From the IMG/VR virus record IMGVR_UViG_3300031746_002572: a stretch of DNA of 64,000 bases; one strand, written 5' to 3'. Source of the DNA: an uncultured virus (IMG/VR IMGVR_UViG_3300031746_002572) (taxonomy: Duplodnaviria; Heunggongvirae; Uroviricota; Caudoviricetes). A program made the translations under genes and the position numbers. The notes under the pieces were generated by a model, which was given only the letters and a program-made list of their open reading frames with translations, searched no databases and was not told the origin of the DNA. Positions 1 through 57,797 of this stretch are shown piece after piece; positions within the stretch are counted from its first letter, which is position 1, and each line of letters opens with the position of its first letter.

Positions 1-3
1 TCT

Positions 4-1425: not shown

Positions 1426-1438
1426 TTCATAAATAAAT

Positions 1439-1470
1439 TTGTAATAAGAATATAAATAATTGTATTTATA
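1439..1470 (+). promoter_or_regulatory. Conserved promoter-like motif, copy 1
   Basis: TTGTAATAAG-N11-TTGTATTTATA followed by AAGGAGG and ATG 1486; same spacing in six copies. Confidence 0.75.
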
Positions 1471-1485
1471 CGTAAAGGAGGGTTT

Positions 1486-2049
1486 ATGAAACCTTATATT
1501 TTTCTATTTGTTTTATTTTGTATTTTTTCATGTAATGATAATTTAACGAATCCATCGCCGACACAAGCATATTTAGATTCTCTTGATTTTTATGATTCCA
1601 TAGACGTAAACGTTAATATAAGCGAAAATTTAAAACCTTTTGCTTATGAAATATTATTTAGAATATGGAATATAAATAGAGTTTATAAATCATGGTTAGA
1701 TACTATATGTATAGATACTATACATAGAGATAGTTTGCATTGTTATGTTGAACCTTTTAATAATGATTCTATAGTAGAATATAGATTCGTAAAATCAGAT
1801 TTAGACACTGGTTTGATTAAAAATTATAGAATTTTTTATCGCCGAAATCATTATAATATAGGATATGAATATTATGGAAAATCTTTAAGTATGTATATAA
1901 CAAATAAATCCGGTTATTATTTTTGTAATATCGAAGTATATCCGTCTCAAACAATTAATAAAAATATTATATCTATTTATATGTATTATGATAATTTATT
2001 AAATATTCAAGTTAAATTAAACGGAGACACAATAAAGAATACTCTATAA
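1486..2049 (+). CDS. Putative lipoprotein
   Basis: Signal peptide/lipobox MKPYIFLFVLFCIFSC; strong SD. Confidence 0.6.
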   Translation: MKPYIFLFVLFCIFSCNDNLTNPSPTQAYLDSLDFYDSIDVNVNISENLKPFAYEILFRIWNINRVYKSWLDTICIDTIHRDSLHCYVEPFNNDSIVEYRFVKSDLDTGLIKNYRIFYRRNHYNIGYEYYGKSLSMYITNKSGYYFCNIEVYPSQTINKNIISIYMYYDNLLNIQVKLNGDTIKNTL

Positions 2050-2061
2050 AGGATTTAGAAA

Positions 2062-3243
2062 ATGAATGAAGAAAAAGAAGTTGTGGCAGAAATAATTAGC
2101 ACGAAAGAAATTTTTGGCGTTACAGAACGTTTTCTTACAATAAATAATTATAGCCAATTTGCTTCATTGGATGTGTGGTCTGGAATGACAAAAGCTTTGC
2201 AACAGTTCGGGGCCACTTGTCTGCCTTTCCCTATTAATAAACTTCAAGCTTTTTTCTCCGATGATATGTTGAATCACTATATTTTATCTACAGCAGTGAG
2301 TACAAGAAATAATTTTACCCATGTTTTATTTGTAGGATCGGCGTTTTTGAAAGAATGGGTGATAAAATCAATAAAAAAGTCAGGTATAAAAACAATTTAT
2401 TGGAGTCTTGAAGACCCTCACTCATTAGACCAAAATTCAAGATTTTATGATATAGCGGATTACTATTTAACCAATGAAAAACGAGTTAAAGATGTTTTAC
2501 CAAAAGCTATTTATATGCCCACGGCAGGAAATACAGATATATGTTTTCCTGTAAATGATATTAACGCGATGCCAAGTGAATTTAAAAAAGATATTATTTT
2601 TGCCGGTAATATATACCCATCACGACAAAAAACATTGGAATATTTGATCCCGTTTATTGAATCAAAAGGTTATAGTTTTGGTATAATAGGCATAACAAAA
2701 CTTGCTGAAAATTTTGAAAAAAGCCCGTTAAAAAAATATATAATCAACGATCTCAATGGAGTCGTAGATCATAAATGGTTTACAATGGCCTATGGTTGCG
2801 CTAAAATTATTTTAAATCTTGAACGTGATCCTTTTTATGAATATGATTCCACATTCTTATCGAACAAGAAATATAAAATTGTTGGCGAATCTTTAAATCC
2901 AAGAGCCTATGAGATTGCCTTATGTAAAGGTGGATTACAATTAATCGACGATAAGAGAAAAGAAATTGAATCGGGGCAAACCATTGAAAATAACAAACAC
3001 TGCATTGTATTTAATTCAGATAATGACTTATGTAAAAAAATTGAATATTATTTATCTCACGAAGATGAGAGAAAAACTATTGTGGATAGGGCTTATGAAT
3101 ACGTCAGCGAAAATCATGTTTATATTAATCGCGCATTTAGATTGTTCAAGAAACTATATTTGTCCGAAGGGAAACAGGATAAAGTTATACAGGTTATATT
3201 AAATTCTTTTCGGAAATATAAAGATGTTGATAACGATAAATAA
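2062..3243 (+). CDS. CgeB-like glycosyltransferase (GT-B)
   Basis: WSLEDPH, DIIFAGNIYPSR, LNPRAYEIALC, KIEYYLSHEDER...HVYINRA. Confidence 0.75.
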   Translation: MNEEKEVVAEIISTKEIFGVTERFLTINNYSQFASLDVWSGMTKALQQFGATCLPFPINKLQAFFSDDMLNHYILSTAVSTRNNFTHVLFVGSAFLKEWVIKSIKKSGIKTIYWSLEDPHSLDQNSRFYDIADYYLTNEKRVKDVLPKAIYMPTAGNTDICFPVNDINAMPSEFKKDIIFAGNIYPSRQKTLEYLIPFIESKGYSFGIIGITKLAENFEKSPLKKYIINDLNGVVDHKWFTMAYGCAKIILNLERDPFYEYDSTFLSNKKYKIVGESLNPRAYEIALCKGGLQLIDDKRKEIESGQTIENNKHCIVFNSDNDLCKKIEYYLSHEDERKTIVDRAYEYVSENHVYINRAFRLFKKLYLSEGKQDKVIQVILNSFRKYKDVDNDK

Positions 3244-4684
3244 TACCTATACCTCCATCAGCAAGCATTTTAATTCACTCCCCCAACAAACGCAGAATAA
3301 AATAATTAAAGAATTTTCTTATAAAAAGAAAATAGGTTATTTTCGATACGAAGAAATCTATTTATTTAGAAAACGCAAAACCGCCGATTTAAATCAATAT
3401 TATTTAATCCCCACAGGTCTATTAATAAAATTGATAAGAACGTTTATGGAAAATGGAATTAAATATGAGATTATAGATAAAAGAAACAAATTTAATCCAG
3501 AAATAAGTATTGATGAATTCTACGAAAAGATGAAGTCTATTGATAATACTATAGAAAACCGTGATTATCAAAGAGAAGCTATAGAAATAGCGCTTAAACG
3601 AATTAGAGGGGTTATCCATCATGCAACAGCTAGCGGAAAAACTATTACTATGGCCGGTATTATATACTGTCTTAATGTCAAAACCCTAGTTCTGTGCCTA
3701 GGAATAGATCATGTTGAACAGATCGTCGATGACTTGAGGAAGTACACAGGTAGACGTGTTTCTGTCGTTTCTGGGGGTGATTACAGCACTAGTGGCGACA
3801 TCGTTGTTTCAAATGTTCAGGCACTACATGCAGTTAAAAAGAGAAGTAACACTAAATTCATTGAATTAATGAAAGAATTCAAGTGTTTAATAGTAGACGA
3901 GGCCCATTTATCTGGAATTACGTGGAAAGAAGTTATATATCATTGTACGAATGCTTATTATCGTATAGGGTTCACTGGAACGTTTTATCGTGAAGACGGA
4001 GCTATAATGGAATTAATCGGGGAAATAGGCCCTGTTTTAAGCCGAATCAATTATACTTATTTAACAGAAAACAAATTTATAAGCAATGCTAGATTTTTTA
4101 TTGTCGATCCTATGTGCGAAGAAATAGATTTAGATCAAGACATTTGGCCTAATTGTCTAGATCAAGCAATAATTAATAATGATAAACGTAATAATTTAAT
4201 TAAAAAAATTTGTGATAAATATACTGAAAAAGGACATCAGGTATTGATTATAAGTCCCTTGCGCGTAGAACATGGATATATCTTAAATAAATTAATTCCG
4301 GCCAGTGTATATTTATCAGGAAATTCAGAACGTTTTTTTAGAAAATCCGAATTAAATAAATTCAGGGATAAAAACAATAAAGTTATAATATGCAGCCGTA
4401 TTTTCGATCAAGCTATAAATATTCCAGATTTAAACTGTATTATATTGGCTGGCGGTGGAAAGGCTCATAATGCAATATATCAGAGAATAGGTAGAGGGAT
4501 AAGAAGAACTGTTGATAAAAACAGAGTGGATATTATTATTTTCTGGGATTCTCATTCTAAAATATTACTCGAACATTCGAGAAGAATTAAATCATTAATA
4601 TTAAAAGAAGAAGTGTGGAAAAATAATGTAAAACATCTGGGAAAATTCAGAAAAATGTATGAAGATGAAGAATTTTCTATTTAG
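3224..4684 (+). CDS. SF2 DEAH helicase (UvsW-like)
   Basis: RDYQ, ATASGKT, VDEAH, TGT, QRIGRGIR. Confidence 0.9.
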   Translation: MLITINNTYTSISKHFNSLPQQTQNKIIKEFSYKKKIGYFRYEEIYLFRKRKTADLNQYYLIPTGLLIKLIRTFMENGIKYEIIDKRNKFNPEISIDEFYEKMKSIDNTIENRDYQREAIEIALKRIRGVIHHATASGKTITMAGIIYCLNVKTLVLCLGIDHVEQIVDDLRKYTGRRVSVVSGGDYSTSGDIVVSNVQALHAVKKRSNTKFIELMKEFKCLIVDEAHLSGITWKEVIYHCTNAYYRIGFTGTFYREDGAIMELIGEIGPVLSRINYTYLTENKFISNARFFIVDPMCEEIDLDQDIWPNCLDQAIINNDKRNNLIKKICDKYTEKGHQVLIISPLRVEHGYILNKLIPASVYLSGNSERFFRKSELNKFRDKNNKVIICSRIFDQAINIPDLNCIILAGGGKAHNAIYQRIGRGIRRTVDKNRVDIIIFWDSHSKILLEHSRRIKSLILKEEVWKNNVKHLGKFRKMYEDEEFSI

Positions 4685-4945
4685 ATTATATCAATAGGCC
4701 AATAATTATATATATAATTTATAAATTATCAGATATAAATTATATATAACTATTAATTATATGTTATATTTTAGATATTAAGTTCTTTTTCTAGTTTTAT
4801 TAAGATTTAAAAATATAAGGATATAAATATTTTAAATAAAAATTAAATTAAAATAAATTATTAATAATATTAATAATCTAATATAATCTATAAGAGGTAA
4901 AATAAATAAGTAATATTTTTGTTTTAAAAAATAGTAAAAATAAAT
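4685..4945. other. Extremely AT-rich non-coding tract with inverted repeat, candidate replication origin
   Basis: Almost no G/C; TATATATAATTTATA...TATAAATTATATATA inverted repeat near 4710-4750. Confidence 0.35.
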
Positions 4946-4977
4946 TTGCAATAAGAAAAAAATAATTTGTATTTATA
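4946..4977 (+). promoter_or_regulatory. Promoter-like motif, copy 2, upstream of array A
   Basis: TTGCAATAAG-N11-TTGTATTTATA. Confidence 0.75.
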
Positions 4978-5055
4978 GGTATGAGAGAAATGAATTTTCT
5001 GTTTTTGGTTTTATTATATTTATCTGTATTTTAATATTTAAATGAAGGAGGGTAT

Positions 5056-5367
5056 ATGAGTATCATAGAAAAGGGTCTGGAAAAAACAGCAGAGGATAAG
5101 AAGAAAGAGATTGTCAACGCTTTTAATAGTAGATTGGAAGTTCTTACAATAGGATTTGCCAGACGTTTGAGAGAACATCCGAGAGCGCAAACTTATATGA
5201 AAGAACTTTATAATATGTTAAAAACTTTGATTTCTGAATATATTATTGATGGTAAAATTCCAGAAGATAAAAGTCCTTCTAAAGAACAAAGAGAAGGTTC
5301 TGTTGCTAGAACTATTGAAATATCTGAAAGAAAAGAAAATAAAATTAAGGAAAGAATTTCTTCTTAA
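5056..5367 (+). CDS. Hypothetical protein
   Basis: AAGGAGG SD; 103 aa. Confidence 0.7.
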   Translation: MSIIEKGLEKTAEDKKKEIVNAFNSRLEVLTIGFARRLREHPRAQTYMKELYNMLKTLISEYIIDGKIPEDKSPSKEQREGSVARTIEISERKENKIKERISS

Positions 5368-5377
5368 AAATATTAAT

Positions 5378-5414
5378 GTAAACTACCACGGGTACAAGAC
5401 CCGTGGTTTCCTTG
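5378..5414 (+). mobile_element. IS200/IS605-end-like hairpin remnant
   Basis: GTAAACTA-CCACGGGT-ACAAG-ACCCGTGG-TTTCC; related hairpins at ~47986 and ~56468; no transposase. Confidence 0.45.
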
Positions 5415-5661
5415 CGAAAGGATTATGAAAAAAATAACAAAAAAAGACATTGATTGGGTTTGTAATGCTTCTTTTGGTAGACATAAAAGCCCAGACATTG
5501 CAATCAAAAAATTTACTCTACGCCAAATTGCATCTGTAATTTTAATATGTTGGGAGGCTGGTAAGAAAGGTGTACTTTCAATAAATAAAGGTTGAAATTT
5601 ACTATAATATCATTCGTGTGGTGAACGTTATGGTAAAGTGGACTTTAAAATAAAAGGATAA

Positions 5662-5733
5662 AAATTATCTGAAAAATTTAAACCGTTTGTTGATAAAGTG
5701 TTAAATAAGGGAATGACAACATATCACTAGTTG
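5662..5733 (+). repeat. 72-bp attI-like array head (exact inverted copy at 57726-57797)
   Basis: Identity ends at the GTTG that starts the first cassette; core GACAAC-ATATCACTA-GTTG. Confidence 0.85.
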
Positions 5734-5770
5734 TGGGAAAGCGGGCTATAAAATTGAAAGGAGCGCGTGA

Positions 5771-6100
5771 ATGACAAAAGAAACTTTGGCGGCAATGTTC
5801 CACGAAACGTATGAGCACCTTGCTCCGGCTTTCGGGTATGTTACCAGAAAATCTACCCGTTGCAATTTTTCTGAGTTGCCGCAAAAAAACAAAGCATTAA
5901 TGATTGCGGTTTGCGGAACAATTCTGAACGCGCTCCAAGATAAGGAATCACCCGCCATCCCACAACAACCGCTTTGTGCTTCGGGCGATGCCAAATTGCC
6001 GCCATTGCCAGATTGTTGTGTGGAATGCCTTGAGGAAAGTATGAAAACTGATGATAATTCGTGTTGTGCTGCACTGCGGCGGCACTTCACAAAGCGGTAA
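5771..6100 (+). CDS. Cassette hypothetical protein; C-terminus encoded by the attC-like hairpin
   Basis: SD AAGGAG; ORF reads through 5960-6100. Confidence 0.7.
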   Translation: MTKETLAAMFHETYEHLAPAFGYVTRKSTRCNFSELPQKNKALMIAVCGTILNALQDKESPAIPQQPLCASGDAKLPPLPDCCVECLEESMKTDDNSCCAALRRHFTKR

Positions 6101-6109
6101 ACGTTGTCT
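5960..6109 (+). repeat. attC-like site
   Basis: CCACAAC...ACCGCTTTGTG / CACAAAGCGGT-AAAC-GTTGTCT. Confidence 0.8.
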
Positions 6110-6152
6110 AAAATAACCGTGCAAGGCCGAGACTGGCGCAGGAGAAAGACAA

Positions 6153-6341
6153 ATGACAAAAGAAAAAGAAGCTATTGAATTATTAAAAGAATGTGAAAAA
6201 GCATTTTTATCATGCGGAAATTGTCCAAATGTTAGACTTGATCCGTTTAATTTAGTTCCGTTTCGTTTGGGTTTTCGCATAGCTACGTTTTTGAAAGACG
6301 AAGATGCGCCAGAGAGCGCGGTTACTTCGGACAACAAATAA
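6153..6341 (+). CDS. Cassette hypothetical protein
   Basis: SD AGGAG; stop inside next attC-like site. Confidence 0.65.
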   Translation: MTKEKEAIELLKECEKAFLSCGNCPNVRLDPFNLVPFRLGFRIATFLKDEDAPESAVTSDNK

Positions 6342-6383
6342 AGGGTGATATTGAAACGATCACCCATTTATAGGACGTTGGTT
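6329..6383 (+). repeat. attC-like site
   Basis: GGACAAC-A-ATAAAGGGTGAT / ATCACCC-A-TTTAT-AGGAC-GTTGGTT, one bulged base. Confidence 0.85.
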
Positions 6384-6431
6384 GAAAGCCTGCCTAATTA
6401 CGGAGCGGGCGCAAAGAAAGGAAAAATTAAA

Positions 6432-6767
6432 ATGGGAATATATCATAGTACGAATATGATAAATAAAAAAATAAGACCAAAGAAAATAAATCTTAATGAT
6501 TATACTGTTGAACAAGCAACCCACAATTTATCATGCAGACATCAAATAGGCACGAGTGGGTTTGATTATACAATGCCATGTATTGTTTTATGGAAAAAAG
6601 GTAGTAATGCAAAAATAATTGTTTTTGGTGAAAGAGCGTGGGCAAATAAAGATTATAAAAAACACATACGATATGTAAACAGGTACAGTATTAAAATAAA
6701 AGATGCGCCCGCCAATATCGGAACGGCAGGCCATCAACCAACAGAGCAAAGTAAGGCGCAAGGCTAA
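6432..6767 (+). CDS. Cassette hypothetical protein ending DAPANIGTAGHQPTEQSKAQG
   Basis: Start reassigned to the ATG after AAGAAAGG. Confidence 0.7.
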   Translation: MGIYHSTNMINKKIRPKKINLNDYTVEQATHNLSCRHQIGTSGFDYTMPCIVLWKKGSNAKIIVFGERAWANKDYKKHIRYVNRYSIKIKDAPANIGTAGHQPTEQSKAQG

Positions 6768-6806
6768 ATTGCGAAGCGCAACTTCTTACTTTGTCGGACG
6801 TTAGGT
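6736..6806 (+). repeat. attC-like site (same core at 10916-10986 and inverted at 57314-57384)
   Basis: AACCAAC...CAAAGTAAG / CTTACTTTG-TCGGAC-GTTAGGT; inner TTGCG-AAG-CGCAA hairpin. Confidence 0.85.
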
Positions 6807-6811
6807 GCAAT

Positions 6812-7678
6812 ATGGCAAATTTTGAAATTATAGGCGCGGGGCAAGACACGGCGCGTCGTGCGCCGAAGATAAATACAATTACGTGCGGGGATTGTCTCGA
6901 AGTAATGCAAACGATACTGGACAAAAGCGTGGATATGGTGCTTTGTGATTTACCGTATGGTACAACACAATGTAAGTGGGATACGGTCATTCCGTTTGCC
7001 CCTCTTTGGGAGCAGTACGATAGGGTTTGCAGGGGGGCGATTGTCCTAACGGGGAGTGAGCCATTTTCAAGTTTATTGCGCGTGTCTAATTTAGCCCTGT
7101 TCAAATATGATTGGATATGGGAAAAATCAAAGGCGACAGGTCATTTAGATGCTAATCGCCGCCCGTTAAAAAAACATGAAACCATTTCTGTATTTGGCGA
7201 TTTGGGATGTTATAACCCCCAAGGGTTAGTCGTAAAAGATAAGCCTACTATAAGCAAGGGCAATAGGGGAAAGAAAGGCGAGGGAAGTAGCGGGGAATGT
7301 TATGGTTTGGCAAATAAAGACGCGGTGCAGACGCATAGTAATTATCCAAAATCAATCATCCCGTTTAATGTGGATATGAAAGCAGAGTTTCATCCAACTC
7401 AAAAACCCGTAGCCCTGTTTGAATATCTTATTCGCACCTACACAGACGAAGGTGATACCGTTCTTGATAACTGTATCGGCTCAGGAACAACCGCTATTGC
7501 CTGTATCAATACTGGTAGGAATTATATAGGAATTGAAAAAGAAGAGAAATACTGCCGGATAGCAGAAGAGCGCATCCATGCGCTAAGAAGCCCCGCGCAG
7601 GACACTAAGGAAATTTGCCATACAGCACCTAACAGCGCAAGCATGCAAATTGCGCAGGTGGAATTAGATTTATTATAG
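6812..7678 (+). CDS. DNA methyltransferase (N6A/N4C, beta class), cassette-borne
   Basis: GDCLEVM, DLPY, HPTQKPVAL, DNCIGSGTT. Confidence 0.92.
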   Translation: MANFEIIGAGQDTARRAPKINTITCGDCLEVMQTILDKSVDMVLCDLPYGTTQCKWDTVIPFAPLWEQYDRVCRGAIVLTGSEPFSSLLRVSNLALFKYDWIWEKSKATGHLDANRRPLKKHETISVFGDLGCYNPQGLVVKDKPTISKGNRGKKGEGSSGECYGLANKDAVQTHSNYPKSIIPFNVDMKAEFHPTQKPVALFEYLIRTYTDEGDTVLDNCIGSGTTAIACINTGRNYIGIEKEEKYCRIAEERIHALRSPAQDTKEICHTAPNSASMQIAQVELDLL

Positions 7679-7711
7679 CGCAATCAGCATGCGTTGCGCG
7701 AACTGTTGAAA
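7627..7711 (+). repeat. attC-like site
   Basis: ACCTAAC-A-GCGCAAGCATGC / GCATGC-G-TTGCGC-GAACT-GTT, bulged G; inner ATTGCGC/GCGCAAT. Confidence 0.85.
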
Positions 7712-7752
7712 GCCTGCCTAATTATGGAGCGGGCGCAAAGAAAGGAAATTAA

Positions 7753-7962
7753 ATGCACACAACGACCGGAGAAATAAAACCTTATTCAGAAGTGGAAAAA
7801 CTTTCGCCAAAAGAACAAAAAAACTTTGTAGAAATTAAGAGGGACTTGTCGGAACAGGAAAAAAATATGCGTCATATTATGCTTTACAGCCCGTGTGGCT
7901 GCGGGTCTGGAAAAAAATTTAAATTTTGTTGCCATGCTCATTTTCTTGGGAAAAAACCATAA
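7753..7962 (+). CDS. SEC-C motif protein
   Basis: SPCGCGSGKKFKFCC. Confidence 0.8.
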   Translation: MHTTTGEIKPYSEVEKLSPKEQKNFVEIKRDLSEQEKNMRHIMLYSPCGCGSGKKFKFCCHAHFLGKKP

Positions 7963-8213
7963 TGGACGGACTTCTTGCTGGTATTGGTGAAAAATTATTG
8001 CCATGTCCGATATGCAACGGCAGAGCAAAACGAACAATGGGTAAAAACGGTGGGTACATAGAATGCGTTGAATGCGGATTGCGGACACGGGATTGCAGAA
8101 AAAACGATAACGAACCAATAGATAACAGGTGGAATAAAAGACATGCGCCCGCAAATATAGGAACGGCAGGCCATCAACCAACTAATAAAGGCCAAAATCA
8201 TGAAGTTGGTTAA
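7962..8213 (+). CDS. Lar-family restriction alleviation-like Zn-ribbon protein
   Basis: LLPCPICNG...IECVECG...RWNKR; ATG overlaps upstream TAA. Confidence 0.65.
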   Translation: MDGLLAGIGEKLLPCPICNGRAKRTMGKNGGYIECVECGLRTRDCRKNDNEPIDNRWNKRHAPANIGTAGHQPTNKGQNHEVG

Positions 8214-8239
8214 AATAAAATTTTGGAGAAACGCTCGCT

Positions 8240-8431
8240 ATGAAATTAAAAATTGAAAAAGATATACAGAAGAAAGACACAATAAAAGAGGATATTAAAA
8301 AAATGGAGATTGGAGATTCTTTTGAACTTACAAAGTATAAAACGTGGCCTCATATTGTTGCTAAAGACATCGGAATTGTAATTGTAGGAATAAAAACAGA
8401 AGCAGGTTATAGATACTGGAGAAAAAAATAG
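8240..8431 (+). CDS. Small putative DNA-binding protein
   Basis: MEIGDSF...GYRYWR; SD GGAG. Confidence 0.55.
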   Translation: MKLKIEKDIQKKDTIKEDIKKMEIGDSFELTKYKTWPHIVAKDIGIVIVGIKTEAGYRYWRKK

Positions 8432-8501
8432 GCTCGCTAATTATAAAATCGTGAAAACCAGTTATTGTAGGCGGCGCGGAAAACCAAGAAAGGAAAACAA
8501 T

Positions 8502-8717
8502 ATGACAGTCCTCGAACTGAAAAGAATGCTGGGAAACTATCCTGATGACATGGAAGTAATTGTTGATAGATGCAGCGACTACACCTCCATTGAGGAAGGC
8601 GAGTGGTCAGTAGTGAAGGCTGTCAAAATCAATTACGGGTTTATGCGATCACACAAGACCATGAGCGATGAGAACAAAGCAAACGAGAAAGAGTATCTGC
8701 ATCTTGAAGGAAATTAA
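8502..8717 (+). CDS. Hypothetical protein
   Basis: MTVLELKRMLGNYPDDMEV; SD AAGAAAGG. Confidence 0.7.
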   Translation: MTVLELKRMLGNYPDDMEVIVDRCSDYTSIEEGEWSVVKAVKINYGFMRSHKTMSDENKANEKEYLHLEGN

Positions 8718-8764
8718 GACCGCATTCGCCGCCGACTATATGGTAAGCGCGGCAAGGAGGTTCT

Positions 8765-8983
8765 GTGGATTCTAACCAGGTTGTCAACACGTTCAACGAG
8801 TTGCGCAGCAATATCGAGGCGTGCGACAAGTCAACGCGAAGTATGCTCCCGGTTATTGCTGGACGGTTACAGCGTGCAACTCAGGATTGTTGCCGTGGCG
8901 AATGGTGTCAGGCGTTGACCGCGTTGAAGCGAGAGCTGCGCAACTGGGACATTATGAAGCAGCAGTGGATAGAGCCGCGCTAA
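8765..8983 (+). CDS. Hypothetical protein
   Basis: GTG start after AAGGAGG; flanked by GCGCGGC / GCCGCGC. Confidence 0.65.
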   Translation: MDSNQVVNTFNELRSNIEACDKSTRSMLPVIAGRLQRATQDCCRGEWCQALTALKRELRNWDIMKQQWIEPR

Positions 8984-9015
8984 AATGCGGAGCGGCGCGA
9001 AGAAAGGAAAATAAC

Positions 9016-9408
9016 ATGAGTGCAGATAATTGGACTTATTGCCCACGGTGCGAAGTAAAGGCGGAAACGGATCGTATTGCCTTTGAAGAAAAGGTTAAAA
9101 AATCGTATGGCAAGGTTTCGGCGGAAGAATATTTGCGGCTAACTGACCAACTTAAAAATCCTAAAAGGCTCGAACAAACACTTCGAGAAGATTACGAACT
9201 TGGAACTAATGAAGGATTTTTTAACGTTTCGTATCGAGCAGGTTGTTCAGTATGTAATTTTAGTTTTGAATTTCATGAGGAAAAAAAGATCGCGCCGCAG
9301 AATAATGCGGAAACGGCCAGCACAGACAAACAACAGCCCCATGCTGCGAGGGCGAAGCGCCACATGCCGGGAATACCGGCACGTCAGCATAGCGCGAACG
9401 TTGGTTGA
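9016..9408 (+). CDS. Hypothetical Zn-binding protein
   Basis: MSADNWTYCPRC...CSVC; SD AAGAAAGG; reads through attC-like site. Confidence 0.7.
   Translation: MSADNWTYCPRCEVKAETDRIAFEEKVKKSYGKVSAEEYLRLTDQLKNPKRLEQTLREDYELGTNEGFFNVSYRAGCSVCNFSFEFHEEKKIAPQNNAETASTDKQQPHAARAKRHMPGIPARQHSANVG
9328..9406 (+). repeat. attC-like site
   Basis: AAACAAC...ATGCTG / CAGCAT...GAAC-GTTGGTT; inner hairpins GGCG/CGCC and TGCCGG/CCGGCA. Confidence 0.75.
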
Positions 9409-9491
9409 AATTTCGTTTTGGCTGTACTATGCGGTTATTAGTAAGTGGTGGTTATTAATTTAGGCGGGCGCGACTACAAAAGGAGGAAAGA

Positions 9492-9737
9492 ATGGAAATT
9501 CTTGAAACGATTTTAAAATGGTTCAAACGATGTGCTGAACCAAATTTAAAGCGGAGATATTCAAGTTGTCCGATCTGTGGAGCAACTTGGTGGGACAACA
9601 AGGAACAACATAATCGTGATTGCTGGATACCGGAATTAGAAAATAAATTAAGAGCGCCCGCCAAAGACAAAAACGGGCAAAACGAAACATCAACCAACAG
9701 CCCTATTTTGCAACCGCAGGAACCGACAGCAACATAG
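9492..9737 (+). CDS. Cassette hypothetical protein (CPIC...H..DC)
   Basis: SD AGGAGG. Confidence 0.7.
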   Translation: MEILETILKWFKRCAEPNLKRRYSSCPICGATWWDNKEQHNRDCWIPELENKLRAPAKDKNGQNETSTNSPILQPQEPTAT

Positions 9738-9751
9738 GGCAAACGTTGTAT
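9692..9751 (+). repeat. attC-like site
   Basis: AACCAAC-A-GCCCTAT / ATAGGGC-AAAC-GTTGTAT. Confidence 0.8.
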
Positions 9752-9783
9752 GCCATTTTGCGCGAACATGAAAGGGGCGACAA

Positions 9784-10068
9784 ATGAATATTAAAATTCT
9801 CGATGCTAAAAAAGAGACATATTGGTATTCACGATTTATTGGGTCCGTGTTTGAAGTTACCGGGAAAGACAGTCCTGCTGGTTATTTTGTTCGACATGAT
9901 GGTTTTGATCAGCAGTATGTTGTTGACAAAGCAGATTGTCGCCCCACGACGAAAGGAACGCGCAAAACGGAGAAGCGTAGCACGGGGGCAGTAGCACATA
10001 CAACTGGCGCTATGCTAAAATGCCCTCATTGTGGAAAGGAAATTCGTATCGTAGGCACATCAGCATAG
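9784..10068 (+). CDS. Cassette hypothetical protein
   Basis: SD AAGGGG; C-terminal CPHC encoded in the hairpin loop. Confidence 0.7.
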   Translation: MNIKILDAKKETYWYSRFIGSVFEVTGKDSPAGYFVRHDGFDQQYVVDKADCRPTTKGTRKTEKRSTGAVAHTTGAMLKCPHCGKEIRIVGTSA

Positions 10069-10083
10069 CGCCATACGTTGGTG
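9998..10083 (+). repeat. attC-like site
   Basis: ATACAAC-TGGCGCTATGCT / AGCATAGCGCCA-TAC-GTTGGTG. Confidence 0.85.
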
Positions 10084-10123
10084 TAAAAATCGGCGGGTGG
10101 AATGCGCGCCAAGAAAGGAAATT

Positions 10124-10405
10124 ATGGAAAAAGATAAAGAGCCTTTTGCGTATCAATATGACCATGATAATGGGAACGATTTTATTATAACTCGCGCAAG
10201 TAACAGCAACACGTATTTTGGCAAAGAAGCAAACGATTTAATGTTTGAAATGTATAAAAGGCAAAGGAATAATGATTTTTATCCTAACGAATTTAATAAC
10301 CAGTTATTGATTGAATTGAATAACAGAAAAGAATGGGCGCGCTCAAATAGATATGTTTTGGCCGCCGATTCATCAACCAACAGCCCTTATATGGCGCAAG
10401 GCTAA
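10124..10405 (+). CDS. Cassette hypothetical protein
   Basis: ATG after AAGAAAGG. Confidence 0.65.
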   Translation: MEKDKEPFAYQYDHDNGNDFIITRASNSNTYFGKEANDLMFEMYKRQRNNDFYPNEFNNQLLIELNNRKEWARSNRYVLAADSSTNSPYMAQG

Positions 10406-10439
10406 ATGAGTACACTTCATATAAGGGCATACGTTGGTT
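10375..10439 (+). repeat. attC-like site
   Basis: AACCAAC-A-GCCCTTATATG / CATATAAGGGC-ATAC-GTTGGTT. Confidence 0.85.
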
Positions 10440-10483
10440 GAAAGCCTGCCTAATTACGGAGCGGGCGCAGGAGAATTAAAGAA

Positions 10484-10633
10484 ATGACAAGACTTGAAGA
10501 CATAAAAAAGAATCTGCTTATTAAACACGAATTATCCGTACTGGATATTAATTGGAAATGTTTAAAGCAAGGGGAATTGGGAAAATTGATTTCATGGGAA
10601 ATTAAAAAAGACAAAGGAAGGAAAATAAAATGA
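10484..10633 (+). CDS. Small cassette protein (49 aa, below ORF-track cutoff)
   Basis: SD AGGAG; MTRLEDIKK...; ATGA overlap with next gene. Confidence 0.55.
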   Translation: MTRLEDIKKNLLIKHELSVLDINWKCLKQGELGKLISWEIKKDKGRKIK

Positions 10634-10947
10634 CAAATGAATTAAATTTACGCCAGGATGGATTACCATTATTCCATTCGGAAGACAGATTGTTTTTTGG
10701 CAGAAAAGAAAATGGCGATGTTATCATTATTAAAAAAGGAGTAGATGCTGGGGGTGGTTTTGAAGAGATACTGTTTAAACAAATTATTCCAAACGATATT
10801 TGGTGTTCTGCTGTAGCGTCTGTTTCAAAATTGGGAGAAGAACAGGGGCGATGGTACAAGGCAACGGAATTTCATAACCAAGATGCGCCCGCGAATATCG
10901 GAACGGCAGGCCATCAACCAACAGAGCAAAGTAAGGCGCAAGGCTAA
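10630..10947 (+). CDS. Cassette hypothetical protein ending DAPANIGTAGHQPTEQSKAQG
   Basis: SD AAGGA. Confidence 0.7.
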   Translation: MTNELNLRQDGLPLFHSEDRLFFGRKENGDVIIIKKGVDAGGGFEEILFKQIIPNDIWCSAVASVSKLGEEQGRWYKATEFHNQDAPANIGTAGHQPTEQSKAQG

Positions 10948-10986
10948 ATTGCGAAGCGCAACTTCTTACTTTGTCGGACGTTGTAT
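10916..10986 (+). repeat. attC-like site
   Basis: Identical to 6736-6802 from AACCAAC to GTT. Confidence 0.85.
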
Positions 10987-11028
10987 GAAAGCCGGTTGCG
11001 AAAACCATTTATAGGAGCGGCGCAAATT

Positions 11029-11493
11029 ATGACAGAAAAGGAAATGGAAGAAAAAAATAAAAAGCACCTCGAAAGAGTAAAATTATATGAAAACACAATT
11101 ATTAATAATAAAAACAGGTTGTTTCTGTGTCCGTTTTGTGGAGACTTCCCAATTTTAGAAAGAAACAAACATTCGGGGAGTTTTATAAATATAGAATATC
11201 ATGCGAGATGTGATTGTATGCAAATTTCAACACCTTATTACAGAAATATTGAACTTGTTATAAAAAAATGGAATACCCGCGCCGCAATTGCGGAATCGCC
11301 CGCCATCATACAACAACCGCTTTGTGCTTCGGAGGCCAAATTGCCAAGTTTTGATGAGGTATTTAAAATGGTCAAGCAACATCTTTGTGCTGTTCGTGAT
11401 TCCGGAACTCTTTGGAAAAATATTGGCGATGATGAAATTATAAAAAACACTTATTTAGCTATTGAAAAACTTGGCAACTTCACAAAGTGGTAA
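11029..11493 (+). CDS. Lar-like Zn-ribbon protein with attC-encoded C-terminal extension
   Basis: LCPFCG...ARCDC...KKWNTR; tail ESPAIIQQPLCAS shared with 5771-6100. Confidence 0.6.
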   Translation: MTEKEMEEKNKKHLERVKLYENTIINNKNRLFLCPFCGDFPILERNKHSGSFINIEYHARCDCMQISTPYYRNIELVIKKWNTRAAIAESPAIIQQPLCASEAKLPSFDEVFKMVKQHLCAVRDSGTLWKNIGDDEIIKNTYLAIEKLGNFTKW

Positions 11494-11502
11494 ACGTTAG
11501 CC
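11308..11502 (+). repeat. attC-like site with long coding loop
   Basis: ATACAAC...ACCGCTTTGTG..TTGCCAAGTTTT / AAAACTTGGCAA..CACAAAGTGGT-AAAC-GTTAGCC. Confidence 0.8.
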
Positions 11503-11548
11503 AAAATAAACCGCGCTGAGTTTATAGTTCGGCGGCAATGGAGGAACA

Positions 11549-11821
11549 ATGGATTTGCATGTTTTATTTGGATCGGCCCTCTGCTACACTAAGGAATTTA
11601 CTATAAACGGTGTGGCCGCATCAGACAAGGATTTCGGCGAGAAATATGATCGATCACCCGATGATGCAGAACTGTATGGGTGCGGGGACATGCGGTTTAC
11701 TCGCAAGCCATCTCTCGCCGAAATTCTTTTGAAGTATGCTATAACCGAGGGTGAGTATTCAACCGTTTGTGATAAGTTGGAAGAGGGCCTTTCTTTTGGA
11801 TCGTGCGGATGGTGTGTTTAA
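11549..11821 (+). CDS. Cassette hypothetical protein (C-terminal CGWC)
   Basis: SD GGAGG. Confidence 0.7.
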   Translation: MDLHVLFGSALCYTKEFTINGVAASDKDFGEKYDRSPDDAELYGCGDMRFTRKPSLAEILLKYAITEGEYSTVCDKLEEGLSFGSCGWCV

Positions 11822-11865
11822 TTGTCCGCCGCCGAAAGAAAGATAATCGATGCGCGGTTTACATC

Positions 11866-11926
11866 GGCTAACAGCCAAAGCCGCGCAATGTCAAGGCCCA
11901 CTGCGGGCGTTTGGCGAACGTTGGGC
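11866..11926 (+). repeat. attC-like site
   Basis: GGCTAAC-A-GCCAAAGCC / GGC-G-TTTGGC-GAAC-GTTGGGC. Confidence 0.85.
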
Positions 11927-11984
11927 ACAATTCGCCCGCAATACATGGCCCCATCGTGGGGCCTAAGAATTAAGGAGAGGACAA

Positions 11985-12428
11985 TTGATTAAAAATTACA
12001 CAAGCGGTGTTCCAGCACAAAAAAGCGTTATGAAGATAGAAGAACTTCTGGCAATTCATGGAGCGCAAAGCGTAGTGAAGCAATACGAAAACCAGAAGTT
12101 AATTGCAGTTTCCTTTTTTATGCAGATCACCGGGAAGCTCATCCCATTTCGTCTACCCGCTAGAATATCTCAAGTGGAAAAAGTTTTAAAAGCAGAGGTC
12201 AAAAAACCACACAAGGGGACTCTTGACAGAATCACCGAACAATCGGAAAGAACAGCGTGGAAAATAATTTTGGATTGGGTAGAAGCGCAAATGGCGCTGG
12301 TTGAATTGCAACAGGCGGAAATGGCAGAGATATTCATGCCATATATGTGGAGTGAAAAATTAGGTCAATCTTTTTATCAAATTGCCGTTGAAAAAGGTTT
12401 TAATCTTTTGGAGGCACCAAAGAAATGA
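11985..12428 (+). CDS. Conserved phage-type hypothetical protein
   Basis: TTG start after AAGGAGAGG; IKNYTS...RTAWKIILDWVEAQMA. Confidence 0.7.
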   Translation: MIKNYTSGVPAQKSVMKIEELLAIHGAQSVVKQYENQKLIAVSFFMQITGKLIPFRLPARISQVEKVLKAEVKKPHKGTLDRITEQSERTAWKIILDWVEAQMALVELQQAEMAEIFMPYMWSEKLGQSFYQIAVEKGFNLLEAPKK

Positions 12429-12477
12429 AACATACGCATAGTTGTGGTAAAACCGCGCAAAGAAAGGAGTAACAACA

Positions 12478-12699
12478 TTGAAAAATAAATTTTGGTACAT
12501 AAAAGAAAGACATAATCCGCAATTCAAACAACCGTATTACGTTGCCCTTGGAAACATATCGAAGAAACAAGCAAAAGCGTATGAAAGTTCAATATACGGG
12601 GATAATACCGTTTTTAGCTTCGACTCGGAAGAAAGGTACAGAGAAGAAATTAAGAGATTAAAAAATGCGCGGTTCAACGTACAACAGGCCGCTTTATGA
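12478..12699 (+). CDS. Cassette hypothetical protein
   Basis: TTG start after AAGGAG; flanked by AACCGCGCA / TGCGCGGTT. Confidence 0.65.
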   Translation: MKNKFWYIKERHNPQFKQPYYVALGNISKKQAKAYESSIYGDNTVFSFDSEERYREEIKRLKNARFNVQQAAL

Positions 12700-12839
12700 A
12701 ACTATCGCATCACAAAGCGATGAACGCATGCGGTACGGGGCAAAAGCCCCAAATTGCCGAAGCGTCAACTTCCGCATAGCGAAAACGGTTGAAAGCCTGC
12801 CTAATTACGGAGCGGGCGCAAAGAAAGGAAAATTAAAGA

Positions 12840-13304
12840 ATGGTAACAAATAAAAATTCTCATATTTGGTGCAGGCTTTCTGGCCCAGGCCGTGGGGACT
12901 GTGAACATTTTATCGGATTGCCGGACAAAATAGATGATAGTGCAACCGATGAATATGGTATTCCATTTGGTTGGTGTGAATGGTGCTGGTTAGTTTTTAA
13001 ATTTGAAGAATTAAATAAAGTTTACAAAAATGCAAAGGCTGTCGTACAACATTGGAATGAATTTGGGCCAGAGTATGGACATGAAGAGCATGTTGATAGC
13101 TTGGAAAAGTCAATTAAAAAATACCATGAAGCAATTGGAACTAAAGATGCGCCCGCCAATCTTAGAACGGCAGGCCATCAACCAACAGAGCAAAGTAAGA
13201 CGCAGCCAGAAATTTGCCCTCATTATTTTGAGGCGACCGATGGGGTACATGCTTGCGTGGTAGGTCAATGTGCGTGTCATGGCAACCTATCTGGCGTGCG
13301 GTGA
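12840..13304 (+). CDS. Cassette hypothetical protein containing DAPANLRTAGHQPTEQSK
   Basis: Same leader/trailer shell as 6377, 7705, 10433 and 57725. Confidence 0.7.
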   Translation: MVTNKNSHIWCRLSGPGRGDCEHFIGLPDKIDDSATDEYGIPFGWCEWCWLVFKFEELNKVYKNAKAVVQHWNEFGPEYGHEEHVDSLEKSIKKYHEAIGTKDAPANLRTAGHQPTEQSKTQPEICPHYFEATDGVHACVVGQCACHGNLSGVR

Positions 13305-13323
13305 ACATAAGGAGGCGGCGCAA

Positions 13324-13674
13324 ATGACAAAAACAAAACATCATTTTGGAAGATTAGAATTTAAAAGCAACAACCTAAAGTTACTTGATAAATTAAAACT
13401 ATTTTTTTACCTTTTGTTTAATAAAAAAATTGTGTTTGTAAATATAGAATTGATAGTAGAAAGCGGCATGATAGAAAATGAACTTGCTTTACTTTGTGAA
13501 GTTGCTTCGCCGGGAATGTTTCCAACCACTGTTCTTACATCAAATATTCTTTGCAATTGGCCTCGTGAACGTATTGTAAGATTTGCAAAGCATCTTCTTG
13601 GTGATAAGTGCCAGGAATGCCGCGCTTGTGAAAACAAGGAAGCGATTGCCACAACCGAGGAAAGGAAAACATGA
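13324..13674 (+). CDS. Hypothetical protein
   Basis: ATG after AAGGAGG. Confidence 0.6.
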   Translation: MTKTKHHFGRLEFKSNNLKLLDKLKLFFYLLFNKKIVFVNIELIVESGMIENELALLCEVASPGMFPTTVLTSNILCNWPRERIVRFAKHLLGDKCQECRACENKEAIATTEERKT

Positions 13675-13856
13675 AAATCTCTATTGCCGAACACATACAA
13701 GAAATTGATAGATTAGTAAAGCGATATGGAGTTGAGTTTGATTATTATTCGTGGAACGAAATAAAAACAGCACTACAAACGCGATGTCCAAATTTAATAG
13801 AAGATAAAAACAAAATATGGAGATGTAAAATTATAATTGAAGATGCGCAAAAATAA
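13671..13856 (+). CDS. Hypothetical protein
   Basis: ATGA overlap; SD AAGGA. Confidence 0.6.
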   Translation: MKISIAEHIQEIDRLVKRYGVEFDYYSWNEIKTALQTRCPNLIEDKNKIWRCKIIIEDAQK

Positions 13857-13876
13857 TGAAGTTTGGCATAGATGTT

Positions 13877-13997
13877 TAATAACCGTATGGCGAAGCAAAT
13901 TTGGCAACCAACGGAAATAGGAATTGTACCAGCAATGAACCTATTACTTATAGCCGTTGTCTGGTGTTGCCAAACTTCGCCATACTCTATGTTAATT
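13877..13997 (+). repeat. attC-like site
   Basis: TAATAAC-C-GTATGGCGAAG..TTTGGCAAC / GTTGCCAAA-CTTCGCCATAC-TCTAT-GTT. Confidence 0.8.
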
Positions 13998-14028
13998 GGT
14001 GGAAACACGGCACGAAGGAGGCCGCACA

Positions 14029-14199
14029 ATGAAAAAAACAAAAGACGATATTGAACTTTCGATTCGAGCAGCAAAACTTGGGAAAAAAGTTCTTACCTTG
14101 GTTGCTATTACAGATAAGGGTCTTGCCTTGCTTATATTGAAGGAAATTGCTGAAATATTAAAAGAAACTGAAAAATGGCTAAAATCATGCGCAGCTTAA
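14029..14199 (+). CDS. Last cassette hypothetical protein
   Basis: SD AAGGAGG; followed by trailer and a truncated attC-like site to ~14289. Confidence 0.6.
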   Translation: MKKTKDDIELSIRAAKLGKKVLTLVAITDKGLALLILKEIAEILKETEKWLKSCAA

Positions 14200-14325
14200 T
14201 TAGATTTTTGGCGTACCGTGCATCCATCAACAAACAAAGTAAGGTGCAGGGCTAAATTGCCGAAGCGTAAACTTCGGCATAGGTTGAATGTTATTAATAG
14301 GTAAAAGAATAATTCAACAGATATT

Positions 14326-15126
14326 ATGTATTATAGAGAACAAGAATTTTATTCTATTATTGAGCGTTTATATAATTCAACTATTTTGAAATGTAAAAAA
14401 TGCAATAATGGTTTTATTGAAAAGAAAATTAAAGATATAGAATCTTCTATTTATTCTGACCCTTTAAAGTGCGATTGTTTTAAAGTATATGAAAAGTGCA
14501 AATCATATATAATTAGTGGTATTCCTAGAGAATTTTGGGATGCTAAAAATAAAGACTTACAAATAGAACCGGATAATAAAAAAACAATACAAAAATATAT
14601 TGATAATATAGAAAAAATGTATTTAAAGGGGCTAGGTATTTTATTTATAGGTTCAAAACTTGGTCTTGGCGAACCTAATAGTGGCAGTGGCAAAACAATT
14701 TCAAGTATTAAAATATTAGAAAATGCGGCAGAAATGAAAAAAAACGTTCATTATATAACTATGAATAGTTTTTTTCATTTTTTATATAGAACGATGAGTG
14801 ATGATATAAATAACAATAAAGAGCACTATTTGAATTTAATAGACGAAATTAATAGTGTTGATTTTTTGGTTATTGATGAAATAGGGAAGATTAAAAAATC
14901 CGATTATGTATATTATTGTTTCGAAGATATGATAAGAAAGCGGGCAGCGCAATTACTTGTAACGATATTGATAACTAATATGAGCGAAAAAGAATTAGAA
15001 GATTTTGTAGGGCCTTCTTTAATGGATATATTAAAAACGACGATGATTAAATTAAGATTGGAGAGTAAAAGTTATAGAGAAAAGAAATTTTTAGATATAA
15101 AACAAAACTTAAATATAGGAGGTTAA
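14326..15126 (+). CDS. DnaC/IstB-like AAA+ ATPase (helicase loader)
   Basis: CKKC...CDC, SGSGKT, FLVIDEIG, ILITN. Confidence 0.85.
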   Translation: MYYREQEFYSIIERLYNSTILKCKKCNNGFIEKKIKDIESSIYSDPLKCDCFKVYEKCKSYIISGIPREFWDAKNKDLQIEPDNKKTIQKYIDNIEKMYLKGLGILFIGSKLGLGEPNSGSGKTISSIKILENAAEMKKNVHYITMNSFFHFLYRTMSDDINNNKEHYLNLIDEINSVDFLVIDEIGKIKKSDYVYYCFEDMIRKRAAQLLVTILITNMSEKELEDFVGPSLMDILKTTMIKLRLESKSYREKKFLDIKQNLNIGG

Positions 15127-57313: not shown

Positions 57314-57384
57314 TGCCAACGTATGATAAAGTAAGAAGTTGCGCTTCGCAATTTAGCCTTGCGCCTTACTTTGCTCTGTTGGTT
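57314..57384 (-). repeat. attC-like site
   Basis: - strand AACCAAC-AGAGCAAAGTAAG...CTTACTTT-ATCATAC-GTTGGCA. Confidence 0.85.
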
Positions 57385-57679
57385 GATGGCCTGCCGTTCC
57401 GATATTCGCGGGCGCATGTCCTTGTAAAAATTCCTCAATTGCTTCACGACATTGATTGCATACACTTCTTGCCCTTTCATTGTTCGCGCAATCAAGGGCA
57501 TTCCTTAATAATTCTCTTCCTCTTCTGCCTGATAATCTTTCATGCTCAAATACTTTTGTTGCTTCTTCGGCTTCTAAATTTGCAGCATCCCAAGCTAAAG
57601 ACGCAACCGTTAACCTATGGGCTACTTCTCTCTCAGGACATTCAAAAACCAAAGAGTCTAAATATTCTTTTTTTGTCAT
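57353..57679 (-). CDS. Cassette hypothetical protein ending HAPANIGTAGHQPTEQSKAQG
   Basis: ATG after AGGAG. Confidence 0.7.
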   Translation of the reverse strand: MTKKEYLDSLVFECPEREVAHRLTVASLAWDAANLEAEEATKVFEHERLSGRRGRELLRNALDCANNERARSVCNQCREAIEEFLQGHAPANIGTAGHQPTEQSKAQG

Positions 57680-57725
57680 TCTTCGATTCTCCTGCGCCCG
57701 CTCCGTAATTAGGCAGGCTTTCAAC

Positions 57726-57797
57726 CAACTAGTGATATGTTGTCATTCCCTTATTTAACACTTTATCAACAAACGGTTTAAATTTTTCAGATAATTT
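57726..57797 (-). repeat. 72-bp attI-like array head (inverted copy of 5662-5733)
   Basis: Exact reverse complement. Confidence 0.85.

Follow-up and report, generated by a model that had tools for sequence, protein, structure and literature searches.

Covarying extensions of cassette ends in an integron-type array on a phage-like element point to a composite-palindrome attC family

The textbook integron cassette is a gene followed by an attC recombination site of 57–141 bp, and only its first 6–7 bases belong to the site. The site is framed by the boxes R'' (RYYYAAC) and R' (GTTRRRY), recombines at G↓TT (the arrow marks the crossover; Nivina et al. 2016) and folds as an imperfect, bulged hairpin whose spacer is unpaired and whose top varies. 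Sedentary chromosomal integrons, of which the homogeneous Vibrio cholerae repeats are an example, carry array- or host-specific palindromic recombination repeats between short genes. Other intergenic palindromes, the enterobacterial repetitive intergenic consensus (ERIC) and Correia elements, are imperfect palindromes of 100–200 nt with terminal inverted arms, and their transcribed hairpins can affect mRNA processing; they have no attC core or G↓TT crossover, and their termini are conserved rather than being type-specific covarying stems. Clusters of attC sites lacking an integron integrase (CALINs) have been reported on phages, including ones with methyltransferase cassettes (Qi et al. 2023, PMC9892861). 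Here we describe a cassette array in a 64-kb stretch (the window) of a 116,007-nt contig from an uncultured virus (IMG/VR IMGVR_UViG_3300031746_002572), of which the other 52 kb lie outside the window. A CALIN on a phage-like element is a known arrangement; as far as our literature searches reach, what is new is that its attC arms are extended, covarying and mismatch-bearing.

The main array (5730..14285, + strand) holds about 20 small same-strand open reading frames (ORFs) between canonical attC-like hairpins (RYYYAAC..GTTRRRY), with no adjacent integrase. As in described integrons, the cassettes are promoterless and their first bases complement their own R''. AAC...GTT boxes stand at 15 junctions, with a loose RRRY fit (GTTAGGT conforms, GTTGTGG does not), and the inner sites measure 52–195 nt, 16 of 19 falling within 55–141 nt. 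The trailer and hairpin at 6700–6802 and 10880–10982 are 99% identical, and the identity stops at GTT; moreover, one inner attC type precedes four different downstream leaders (at 6800, at 10980, on metagenome contig L033 and at 57320). Together these observations imply that crossover usually occurs at G↓TT and that the attC moves together with the gene upstream of it. With at least two clustered attC sites and no integrase nearby among the scanned ORFs, the island is, judged by its sequence anatomy, an integron-type cassette array of the CALIN kind; a complete integron, with a TIGR02249-type intI beside attI and an array, was not found within the window. Compared with the phage CALINs of that report (PMC9892861), the locus has the same integrase-less attC cluster on a phage-like genome, DNA methyltransferase cargo and boundary GTT motifs. 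It differs in being far larger (about 15 recognisable sites), in having two insertion points with an identical 72-nt flank, in its extended cassette ends, and in that its phage identity is drawn from replication and recombination genes only.

A sequence-only reading of the window had proposed that each cassette is clamped by covarying inverted repeats of its own, a 5' leader starting at GTT and a 3' trailer ending in AAC, with a fixed AA/CA mismatch. The five leader/trailer pairs it quoted are present at the expected positions (5730/5951, 6377/6725, 6800/7611, 9400/9677 and 11496/11852), and all five of its GC-rich outer stems are present and paired in folds. We scanned without gaps, comparing the 20 nt after each GTT with AAC-ending 20-mers 80–1600 nt downstream and keeping the best complement. 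At 5600–14400, 9 of 152 GTTs had at least 16/20 complementary positions, and these represent 8 cassettes (9404 is a shifted copy of 9400). The only such GTT among 784 at 15000–62000 is itself a cassette (57378–57729), giving a background of 0/783, and none of the 79 GTTs at 1–5600 reached this level.

We then calculated duplex energies of leaders and trailers for a curated set of 21 cassettes, 14 from the window and seven from metagenome contigs L008, L011 and L033, which reduce to 17 distinct types when five copies of the arm type first seen in cassette W3 are merged into one. Own pairs averaged −27.0 kcal/mol, against −13.7 kcal/mol for all other leader/trailer combinations of the 21 cassettes. 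For the 17 types, with DNA duplexes of 55-nt ends, the means were −26.5 kcal/mol for own pairs and −13.4 kcal/mol (standard deviation 1.06) for permuted pairs, and 0 of 100,000 permutations reached the own-pair energy, so that the refutation offered beforehand, namely that shuffled pairs would do equally well, did not materialise. The own trailer was the best partner for 16 of 17 leaders and, once the first 9 nt (the R box) were removed, for 14 of 17 (−20.8 versus −11.5 kcal/mol). Column by column behind the GTT, positions 1–9 are paired, position 10 is unpaired in 15/17 types, position 11 is A·C in 14/17, and positions 12–20 are Watson–Crick in 12–16 of 17 types, with 3–4 pair types per column. 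The consensus is GTT-N4-(G/A)AAA in the leader and CATC-N4-AAC in the trailer, and the related types W1 and W11 differ at the R box by changes that compensate each other on its two sides (GG/CC versus AT/AT). Extended pairing specific to a cassette's own ends is therefore confirmed, as is its covariation. The mismatch proved near-constant rather than strictly fixed, and the claim that every cassette is clamped was too broad: beside the eight window cassettes found without gaps, the stretches 8205–9399, 11920–12440 and ~13190–13990 lack a trailer or leader that can be recognised as their own and are apparently truncated or fused, and cassettes W8, W11, W14, W17 and A1 pair weakly or only with gaps.

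When circle junctions were built in a script (trailer, inner attC, own leader), the reconstituted junction formed one continuous hairpin in 19/19 cassettes and on both strands. From the outside in, this hairpin consists of stem 3 (8–10 bp, GC-rich), an internal loop of about 10–14 nt per side, stem 2, a single mismatch and the R box of 9–10 bp; further in come a bulge of 3–4 nt, an L region interrupted by single-base bulges, and the variable top. Mean bottom-strand energies were −15.8 kcal/mol for the attC alone, −26.7 kcal/mol for the integrated hybrid with equal flanks and −40.0 kcal/mol for the circle junction. In whole-circle folds, stem 1 (at least 5/9 pairs) was kept in 18/18 circles and stem 2 (at least 5/9 ungapped pairs) in 14/18, on both strands. 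Each gene does thus sit in the loop of a structure in in-silico circles, as had been suggested, albeit as a side effect of the G↓TT crossover splitting a long attC-centred palindrome; the dumbbell predicted for an excised circle, however, is not what the folds give, which is one long hairpin plus the ORF loop. Stem 3 ends a few nucleotides 5' of the Shine–Dalgarno sequence in most leaders, and the ORFs run through the trailer to stop inside the inner attC in 11/12 window cassettes and 4/7 of those on L008, L011 and L033. A fourth element lies outside stem 3 in W4 and in cassette B2 of L011: an extra GC hairpin between stem 3 and the ribosome-binding site (6843–6866, and the B2 leader on the − strand of L011), present in two arm types and mirrored by a GCGCATCCATGCGC palindrome upstream of stem 3' in the trailers. 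The loop motifs AGGACACTAAGGA and TTATAGGSG each occur once in the window, as by chance.

Pairing in described integrons is confined much more closely to the site. Here it extends 35–60 nt beyond the R boxes on each side, into the 5' untranslated region (UTR) and the last ORF codons; a conserved GAAA/CATC with a 2-nt mismatch stands just outside the R box; and the folded circle site measures 150–250 nt, beyond the published attC range. We compared the cassettes with arrays beside TIGR02249 integrases, in which attC-like hairpins were marked with a simple energy finder of our own; as this finder was noisy at −12 kcal/mol, controls were restricted to −20 kcal/mol or below (down to −26 kcal/mol, depending on the array). 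Over 45-nt flanks with the 7-nt R boxes excluded, complementarity exceeded that of shuffles (z < −3) in 19/21 cassettes of the family (median −7.8) and in 1/56 cassettes of five gammaproteobacterial arrays (L090 0/14, L087 1/15, L094 0/12, L088 0/6, L095 0/9). Sedentary chromosomal integrons, to which L087, L090 and L094 are comparable, share the array-specific repeats, but in the five arrays tested the flanks outside the R boxes are not complementary. In a second phylum, where 110 of 301 sampled genomes had an integrase, 3 of 4235 GTTs in 17 integrase-adjacent regions reached at least 16/20, the arrays in these regions being unverified. Like the anatomy, the own-pair specificity and the covariation, the absence of extended stems from the ordinary integrons tested is a direct observation, and it agrees with the earlier expectation that ordinary cassettes match only in their R boxes, within this sample and its crude attC calls. 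The sequence-only reading had also recognised no such architecture among described integrons, and full-text literature searches likewise returned no description of extended covarying cassette arms. The relevant passage of Ghaly et al., as we understand it, concerns pairing inside the attC site and not into the cassette body.

The explanation that we favour, with a probability of roughly 0.55, is that the arrayed cassettes carry a composite-palindrome attC family, not described in the literature searched, whose outer arms act at the DNA level. The recombination element would be a composite imperfect palindrome of about 150–250 nt built around a canonical attC. From the middle outwards, it would comprise the attC core (R'' ..AAC, L'', a variable top, L' and R' GTT...), with the R box lengthened to 9 bp; a 2-nt mismatch (A·A and A·C on the coding strand, equal to T·T and T·G on the bottom strand); the covarying stem 2 of 7–12 bp; an AT-rich loop of about 10–14 nt per side; and the GC-rich stem 3 of 8–10 bp just 5' of the Shine–Dalgarno sequence. 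Crossover at G↓TT would split this palindrome, so that its right outer arm becomes the 5' leader of the downstream cassette and its left arm remains the 3' end of the upstream cassette. Each source array would have its own long palindromic repeat; once sources are mixed, a leader would match no trailer but its own, and the full hairpin would be restored only on excision as a circle or where a native array consists of like repeats. The outer arms may stabilise the bottom-strand hairpin for an integron integrase by lengthening the R arm, with GAAA/CATC and the mismatch as a candidate recognition feature, and folding of excised cassettes for capture at an attI-like site would presumably be favoured over that of integrated hybrid sites.

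A role of the arms at the DNA level, in integrase recombination, is their most likely function. The stems are almost wholly Watson–Crick, and their sole systematic wobble favours the bottom (antisense) strand: at positions 8–20 of the 17 types there are 23 A·C cells (G·T on the bottom strand, 1.35 per site) and 7 top-strand G·T cells (0.41 per site). This bias resembles that of canonical attC sites, for which Nivina et al. (2016) give G:T mispairs of 1.24 versus 0.39. The minimum free energy of the junction is also lower on the bottom strand in 18/19 cassettes. Because sense RNA would tolerate G·U and not A·C, we rank a DNA-level role above an RNA role; of the earlier suggestion of a conserved single-stranded DNA or RNA structure, the structure holds with DNA as its favoured form, and a purely RNA-level form is disfavoured by the A·C excess.

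Several observations weigh against this explanation. Most of the strand bias comes from position 11 (14 cells) together with position 8 (4 cells), and elsewhere A·C and G·T cells number 5 and 7. Summed leader/trailer duplex energies are equal between strands (−616 versus −615 kcal/mol), and in whole-circle folds the top strand is the more stable in 12/18, the bottom strand in 5 and neither in 1. In 17/19 sites the inner attC has its extra unpaired bases on the L'–R' arm, by a measure that missed the canonical bias in the controls; on our reading of the published description, canonical attC sites have their extrahelical bases near L''. Scanning the window ORFs (64 kb of the 116-kb contig) with Pfam or PHROGs turned up no integrase or recombinase, and no native array or integrase was found in 18-mer scans of metagenome and genome loci. 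The trailers of W3 arm type lead into four different inner attC sites, which a single G↓TT crossover does not predict. The control attC calls come from a crude finder, with the second-phylum arrays unverified as said above. Finally, the window was assembled from a metagenome and contains repeats as long as 103 nt, which means that cassette order may be wrong, although the leader–ORF–trailer units are joined through unique sequence.

The variety of inner hairpins bears on a more far-reaching reading, which we hold only tentatively: that these are a distinct class of recombination site, with a half-site on each cassette end that becomes whole only in the excised circle or in a uniform array, an exchangeable inner hairpin with breaks at both AAC and GTT, and a dedicated integrase lineage that reads the lengthened R arm with its conserved T·T/T·G mismatch. 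The four inner attC sites that follow W3-type trailers suggest either exchange at or near AAC or modular inner attC sites. These trailers are identical up to ..CATCAACCAAC and then continue into four unrelated inner hairpins (at 6743, 8183, L008 1524 and, on the − strand, L011 ~1306). The last inner attC is a mosaic of two others (families D5 and D13), and the inner hairpins have in common a central GGCTAAAT-like motif that supplies many of the stop codons. On L033 (~885–930), the apex of the inner attC has the exact 13-nt sequence of the W4 trailer loop followed by the leader-loop-like TTATTATAG (window counterparts 7599–7611 and 6822–6833); it looks like a coreless outer hairpin at the centre of another site, that is, a nested, self-similar architecture. 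These oddities leave room for exchange at AAC as well as at GTT, or for short-homology recombination among repeats.

We asked whether the arms belong to the genes they enclose. W3-type arms occur at 6377, 7705, 10433, 12788 and 57729 (− strand) in the window and on L008, with different cargo in each of the six, and at least three further unrelated proteins elsewhere carry this type. The tail encoded by the trailer, used as a protein query, retrieved unrelated proteins that end in APANIGTAGHQPT(E/D)QSKAQG (P0001, P0003, P0004 and the Dam-like P0006). The same arm type thus surrounds unrelated genes: the arms belong to repeat types and not to genes, and the covariation is between repeat types rather than gene by gene. 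Translated trailers at 6704–6767, 8144–8213, 10884–10947, 13148–13190 and 57353–57415 (− strand) give a shared C-terminal tail (D/H)APANIGTAGHQPTEQSKAQG, and the conserved GGCTAAAT motif in the inner attC supplies the stop codon of the tail-bearing proteins. True relatives are few: 3 of 37 metagenome loci retrieved by the 18-mer scan (L008, L011 and L033), whereas all 23 genome loci were chance matches without trailer context.

Contigs of four other sediment runs were also compared with the array (Logan contigs, 88% likeness, possibly chimeric at repeats). Joints from 6865–6892 to 7548–7590 occur in X2, X3 and X5, and at least four continuations follow 6865–6869, which implies that W4-type leader and trailer surround other content there. 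Cassette orders differ as well, with 7638 joined to 9375, and 8723 joined to 10378 via 390 other letters, and one contig from another sample has an intact leader before 8450 that is missing from the window.

The sharing of arm types among unrelated genes is also what would be seen if the arms were a passive relic without a role: the conserved outer stretches of a long repeat that each source array keeps homogeneous, for example by gene conversion or by mismatch correction in hairpins, so that own-pair complementarity in a mixed array would reflect history alone. The near-perfect Watson–Crick arms with few single-sided changes are such as copying would yield, and attC sites of sedentary chromosomal integrons are described as homogeneous within an integron. 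Yet at least 17 arm types with wholly different stems 2 and 3 share the same architecture, the same position of the 2-nt mismatch and similar loop sizes; homogenisation by itself accounts neither for an architecture common to all types nor for a conserved unpaired dinucleotide, which counts against a relic and leaves it, in our view, improbable.

We judge it unlikely that the arms form an RNA-level clamp in a polycistronic transcript, whether for cistron protection, as an RNase III-type processing stem like those of rRNA precursors, or for coupling translation, in that the upstream ribosome, on reading the trailer, would melt the hairpin beside the next ribosome-binding site. The placement of stem 3 just 5' of the Shine–Dalgarno sequence and the ORFs that read through the trailer would suit such a clamp, all cassettes are co-oriented with the flanking genes, and the duplexes are very stable under RNA parameters. 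However, the A·C cells that outnumber G·U-type cells are mismatches in sense RNA, and the near-invariant A·C at position 11 is one of them, yet a wobble on antisense DNA. The Shine–Dalgarno sequence lies outside the hairpin and so would not be occluded, the junction hairpin in a mixed array is without outer stems, so that pairing of own ends would have to span 200–800 nt, and there was no match to an Rfam family (E up to 1). Sigma-70 promoter-like sites (26 versus 23.9 expected) and terminator-like sites (13 versus 10.0 expected) are at chance level.

A different mobile element, consisting of genes with terminal inverted repeats moved by a transposase or another recombinase, is very unlikely. 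It would make the attC-like hairpins mere spacers, or AAC and GTT both crossover points and the inner hairpin a swappable module, and could draw on the 40–50 nt inverted terminal arms with their GTT../..AAC ends, on the W3-type trailers whose identity ends right after AAC before four inner hairpins, and on one inner hairpin type that has other neighbours in other samples (in possibly chimeric contigs). The conserved termini, target-site duplications and transposase that would mark a miniature inverted-repeat transposable element or a transposon were not found, the units have no flanking direct repeats, and the window ORFs scanned with Pfam or PHROGs include no transposase. Transposase binding sites are conserved, whereas these termini vary with the arm type. 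In 5/8 cases the inner attC stays with the W3-type trailer upstream of it, but in 0/6 with a given downstream leader, and the array ends fit insertion at G↓TT. To an assembly artefact or chance, which a metagenome contig with repeats might raise, we give next to no credence, since unique coding sequence links leader, ORF and trailer in each unit, three independent metagenome contigs (L008, L011 and L033) show the same architecture with different stem sequences, parts recur in four other runs, and no permutation matched the own-pair energy.

The proposed composite-palindrome family can be followed along the array (all + strand). A 72-nt attI-like left flank (copy 1, 5662..5733), a perfect repeat, ends ..ATGACAACATATCACTAG↓TTG at the first cassette, W1 (5730..6102; leader 5730–5768, trailer 5928–5966, inner attC to 6109), whose leader comprises stem 1 GTTGTGGGA, AA, stem 2 GCGGG, a loop and stem 3 GGAGCGCGT. 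W2 (6103..6376; leader 6103–6140, trailer 6305–6335) has several wobbles or mismatches, and W3 (6377..6799; leader 6377–6413, trailer 6704–6742) gives its arm type its name. W4 (6800..7704; leader 6800–6842, extra hairpin to ~6866, trailer 7590–7633) codes an N6/N4 DNA methylase, and W5t (7705..8204; W3 arm type, trailer 8144–8182) has a 5'-truncated leader starting GTTGAAAGCC and two ORFs, one for a Lar-family protein. The stretch 8205..9399 has four ORFs without clean leader/trailer pairs of their own; within it, the cassette at 8450–8723 is the one with an intact leader only in another sample's contig. W7 (9400..9744; leader 9400–9471, trailer 9654–9698) is followed by W8 (9745..10076; leader 9745–9783, trailer 9936–10004), which pairs in a gapped register with about 29 extra nt in the trailer, W9 (10077..10432; leader 10077–10110, trailer 10336–10381) and the two-ORF W10 (10433..10979; W3 arm type, leader 10433–10469, trailer 10884–10922). 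W11 (10980..11495; leader 10980–11023, trailer 11279–11314), related to W1, codes a second Lar-family protein, and W12 (11496..11919; leader 11496–11536, trailer 11828–11872) is next. W14 (12441..12787; leader 12441–12458, trailer 12667–12685) pairs weakly with a 1-nt shift, W15t (12788..13186; W3 arm type, trailer 13148–13186) has a truncated leader and a degenerate attC downstream, and the last cassette, W17 (13991..14282; leader from 13991, trailer to 14235, variant register), has an inner attC ending ..GCATAG↓GTTGAATG, after which low-GC DNA begins.

Many of the cassette ORFs code small proteins with CxxC pairs (7753–7962, 9016–9408, 9492–9737 and 9784–10068), with no Pfam match at E ≤ 0.01; among the pairs is a SEC-C-like CGCGSGKKFKFCC motif. 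The W3-type leaders at 7701–7709 and 12784–12792 lack 3–4 nt of GTTGGTTGA (..AACTGTTGA and ..AACGGTTGA). With these truncated leaders and the leaderless cassette at 8450–8723, the array appears to be decaying.

A second insertion point lies near the other end of the window. A solo cassette of W3 arm type with an unrelated 108-aa ORF (57320..57729, − strand; leader 57729–57693, R'' end at 57378, inner attC to 57321) stands 43 kb from the main array and on the opposite strand, where it has the orientation of the neighbouring genes and is directly followed downstream by a DNA methyltransferase gene (56745–57287). It is preceded by copy 2 of the attI-like flank (57726..57797, − strand), whose 72 nt are identical to 5662–5733 in reverse complement, and both copies end ..ATGACAACATATCACTAG↓TTG. 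Copy 2 is the 3' end of an intact small gene (57729–57950, − strand), presumably ribbon-helix-helix-like by eye and not by a family match, and only that piece is present at 5.7 kb. The main and solo arrays end alike, in an attC, GTTG and then unrelated low-GC DNA. The 72-nt flank looks like a specific attI-like docking site in two inverted copies and is a candidate attI. Random insertion of the array at a secondary GTT site was considered and dropped, the flank being identical at both insertion points.

The island stands out in GC content (0.39–0.43 at ~6–14 kb, against 0.26–0.33 in the rest of the window); for the array at 5730–14285 the figure is 40–43%, and for its flanks 28–30%. Its flanks code a helicase, a DnaC-like ATPase, DnaB, a primase, a 1200-aa DnaE, a UvsX-like recombinase, SbcCD, RuvC, a sugar-modification cluster and several DNA methyltransferases, and PHROG matches to the replication and recombination genes indicate that the element is probably phage-like; no capsid or terminase gene was found within the 64-kb window. 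The sugar-modification genes form a long run (37462–52952, + strand) with NeuB, a cytidylyltransferase, a class IV aminotransferase, several glycosyltransferases, a radical SAM protein and an epimerase. Genes for DNA methyltransferases number at least four in the window (33701–34849, 48045–48632, 56745–57287 on the − strand, and 6812–7678), one of them inside a cassette. A 342-aa ORF (57994–59022, − strand) was considered as a hidden integrase and rejected, having no Pfam or PHROG match and being unlike a tyrosine recombinase by eye. The DnaC-like neighbour, used as a query for related loci, found no relative; BLAST of the array or of a junction against phages and plasmids gave no match; and exact-pattern scans of viral contigs with trailer, leader, stem 3 plus ribosome-binding site, W4 leader and attI-like flank gave 0 matches each.

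If the composite-palindrome explanation is right, these cassettes depart from the textbook form in that the site takes in the 5' UTR and the last codons of the gene, within a hairpin that exceeds the usual length two- to threefold. Folding, and hence recombination, should then differ between integrated and excised cassettes, a built-in bias towards capture. Unrelated genes receive conserved C-terminal tails and 5' UTRs from the arms. Tools for finding attC sites that stop at the R boxes miss this structural signature, which could serve to sort environmental cassettes by source. Should the distinct site class hold instead, its nested, self-similar hairpins might preserve a trace of the way in which new cassettes and attC sites are built. 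Lastly, the presence of an array at two attI-like copies, with a DNA methylase and Lar-type proteins among its cargo, adds to the case for phages drawing anti-restriction genes from integron pools.

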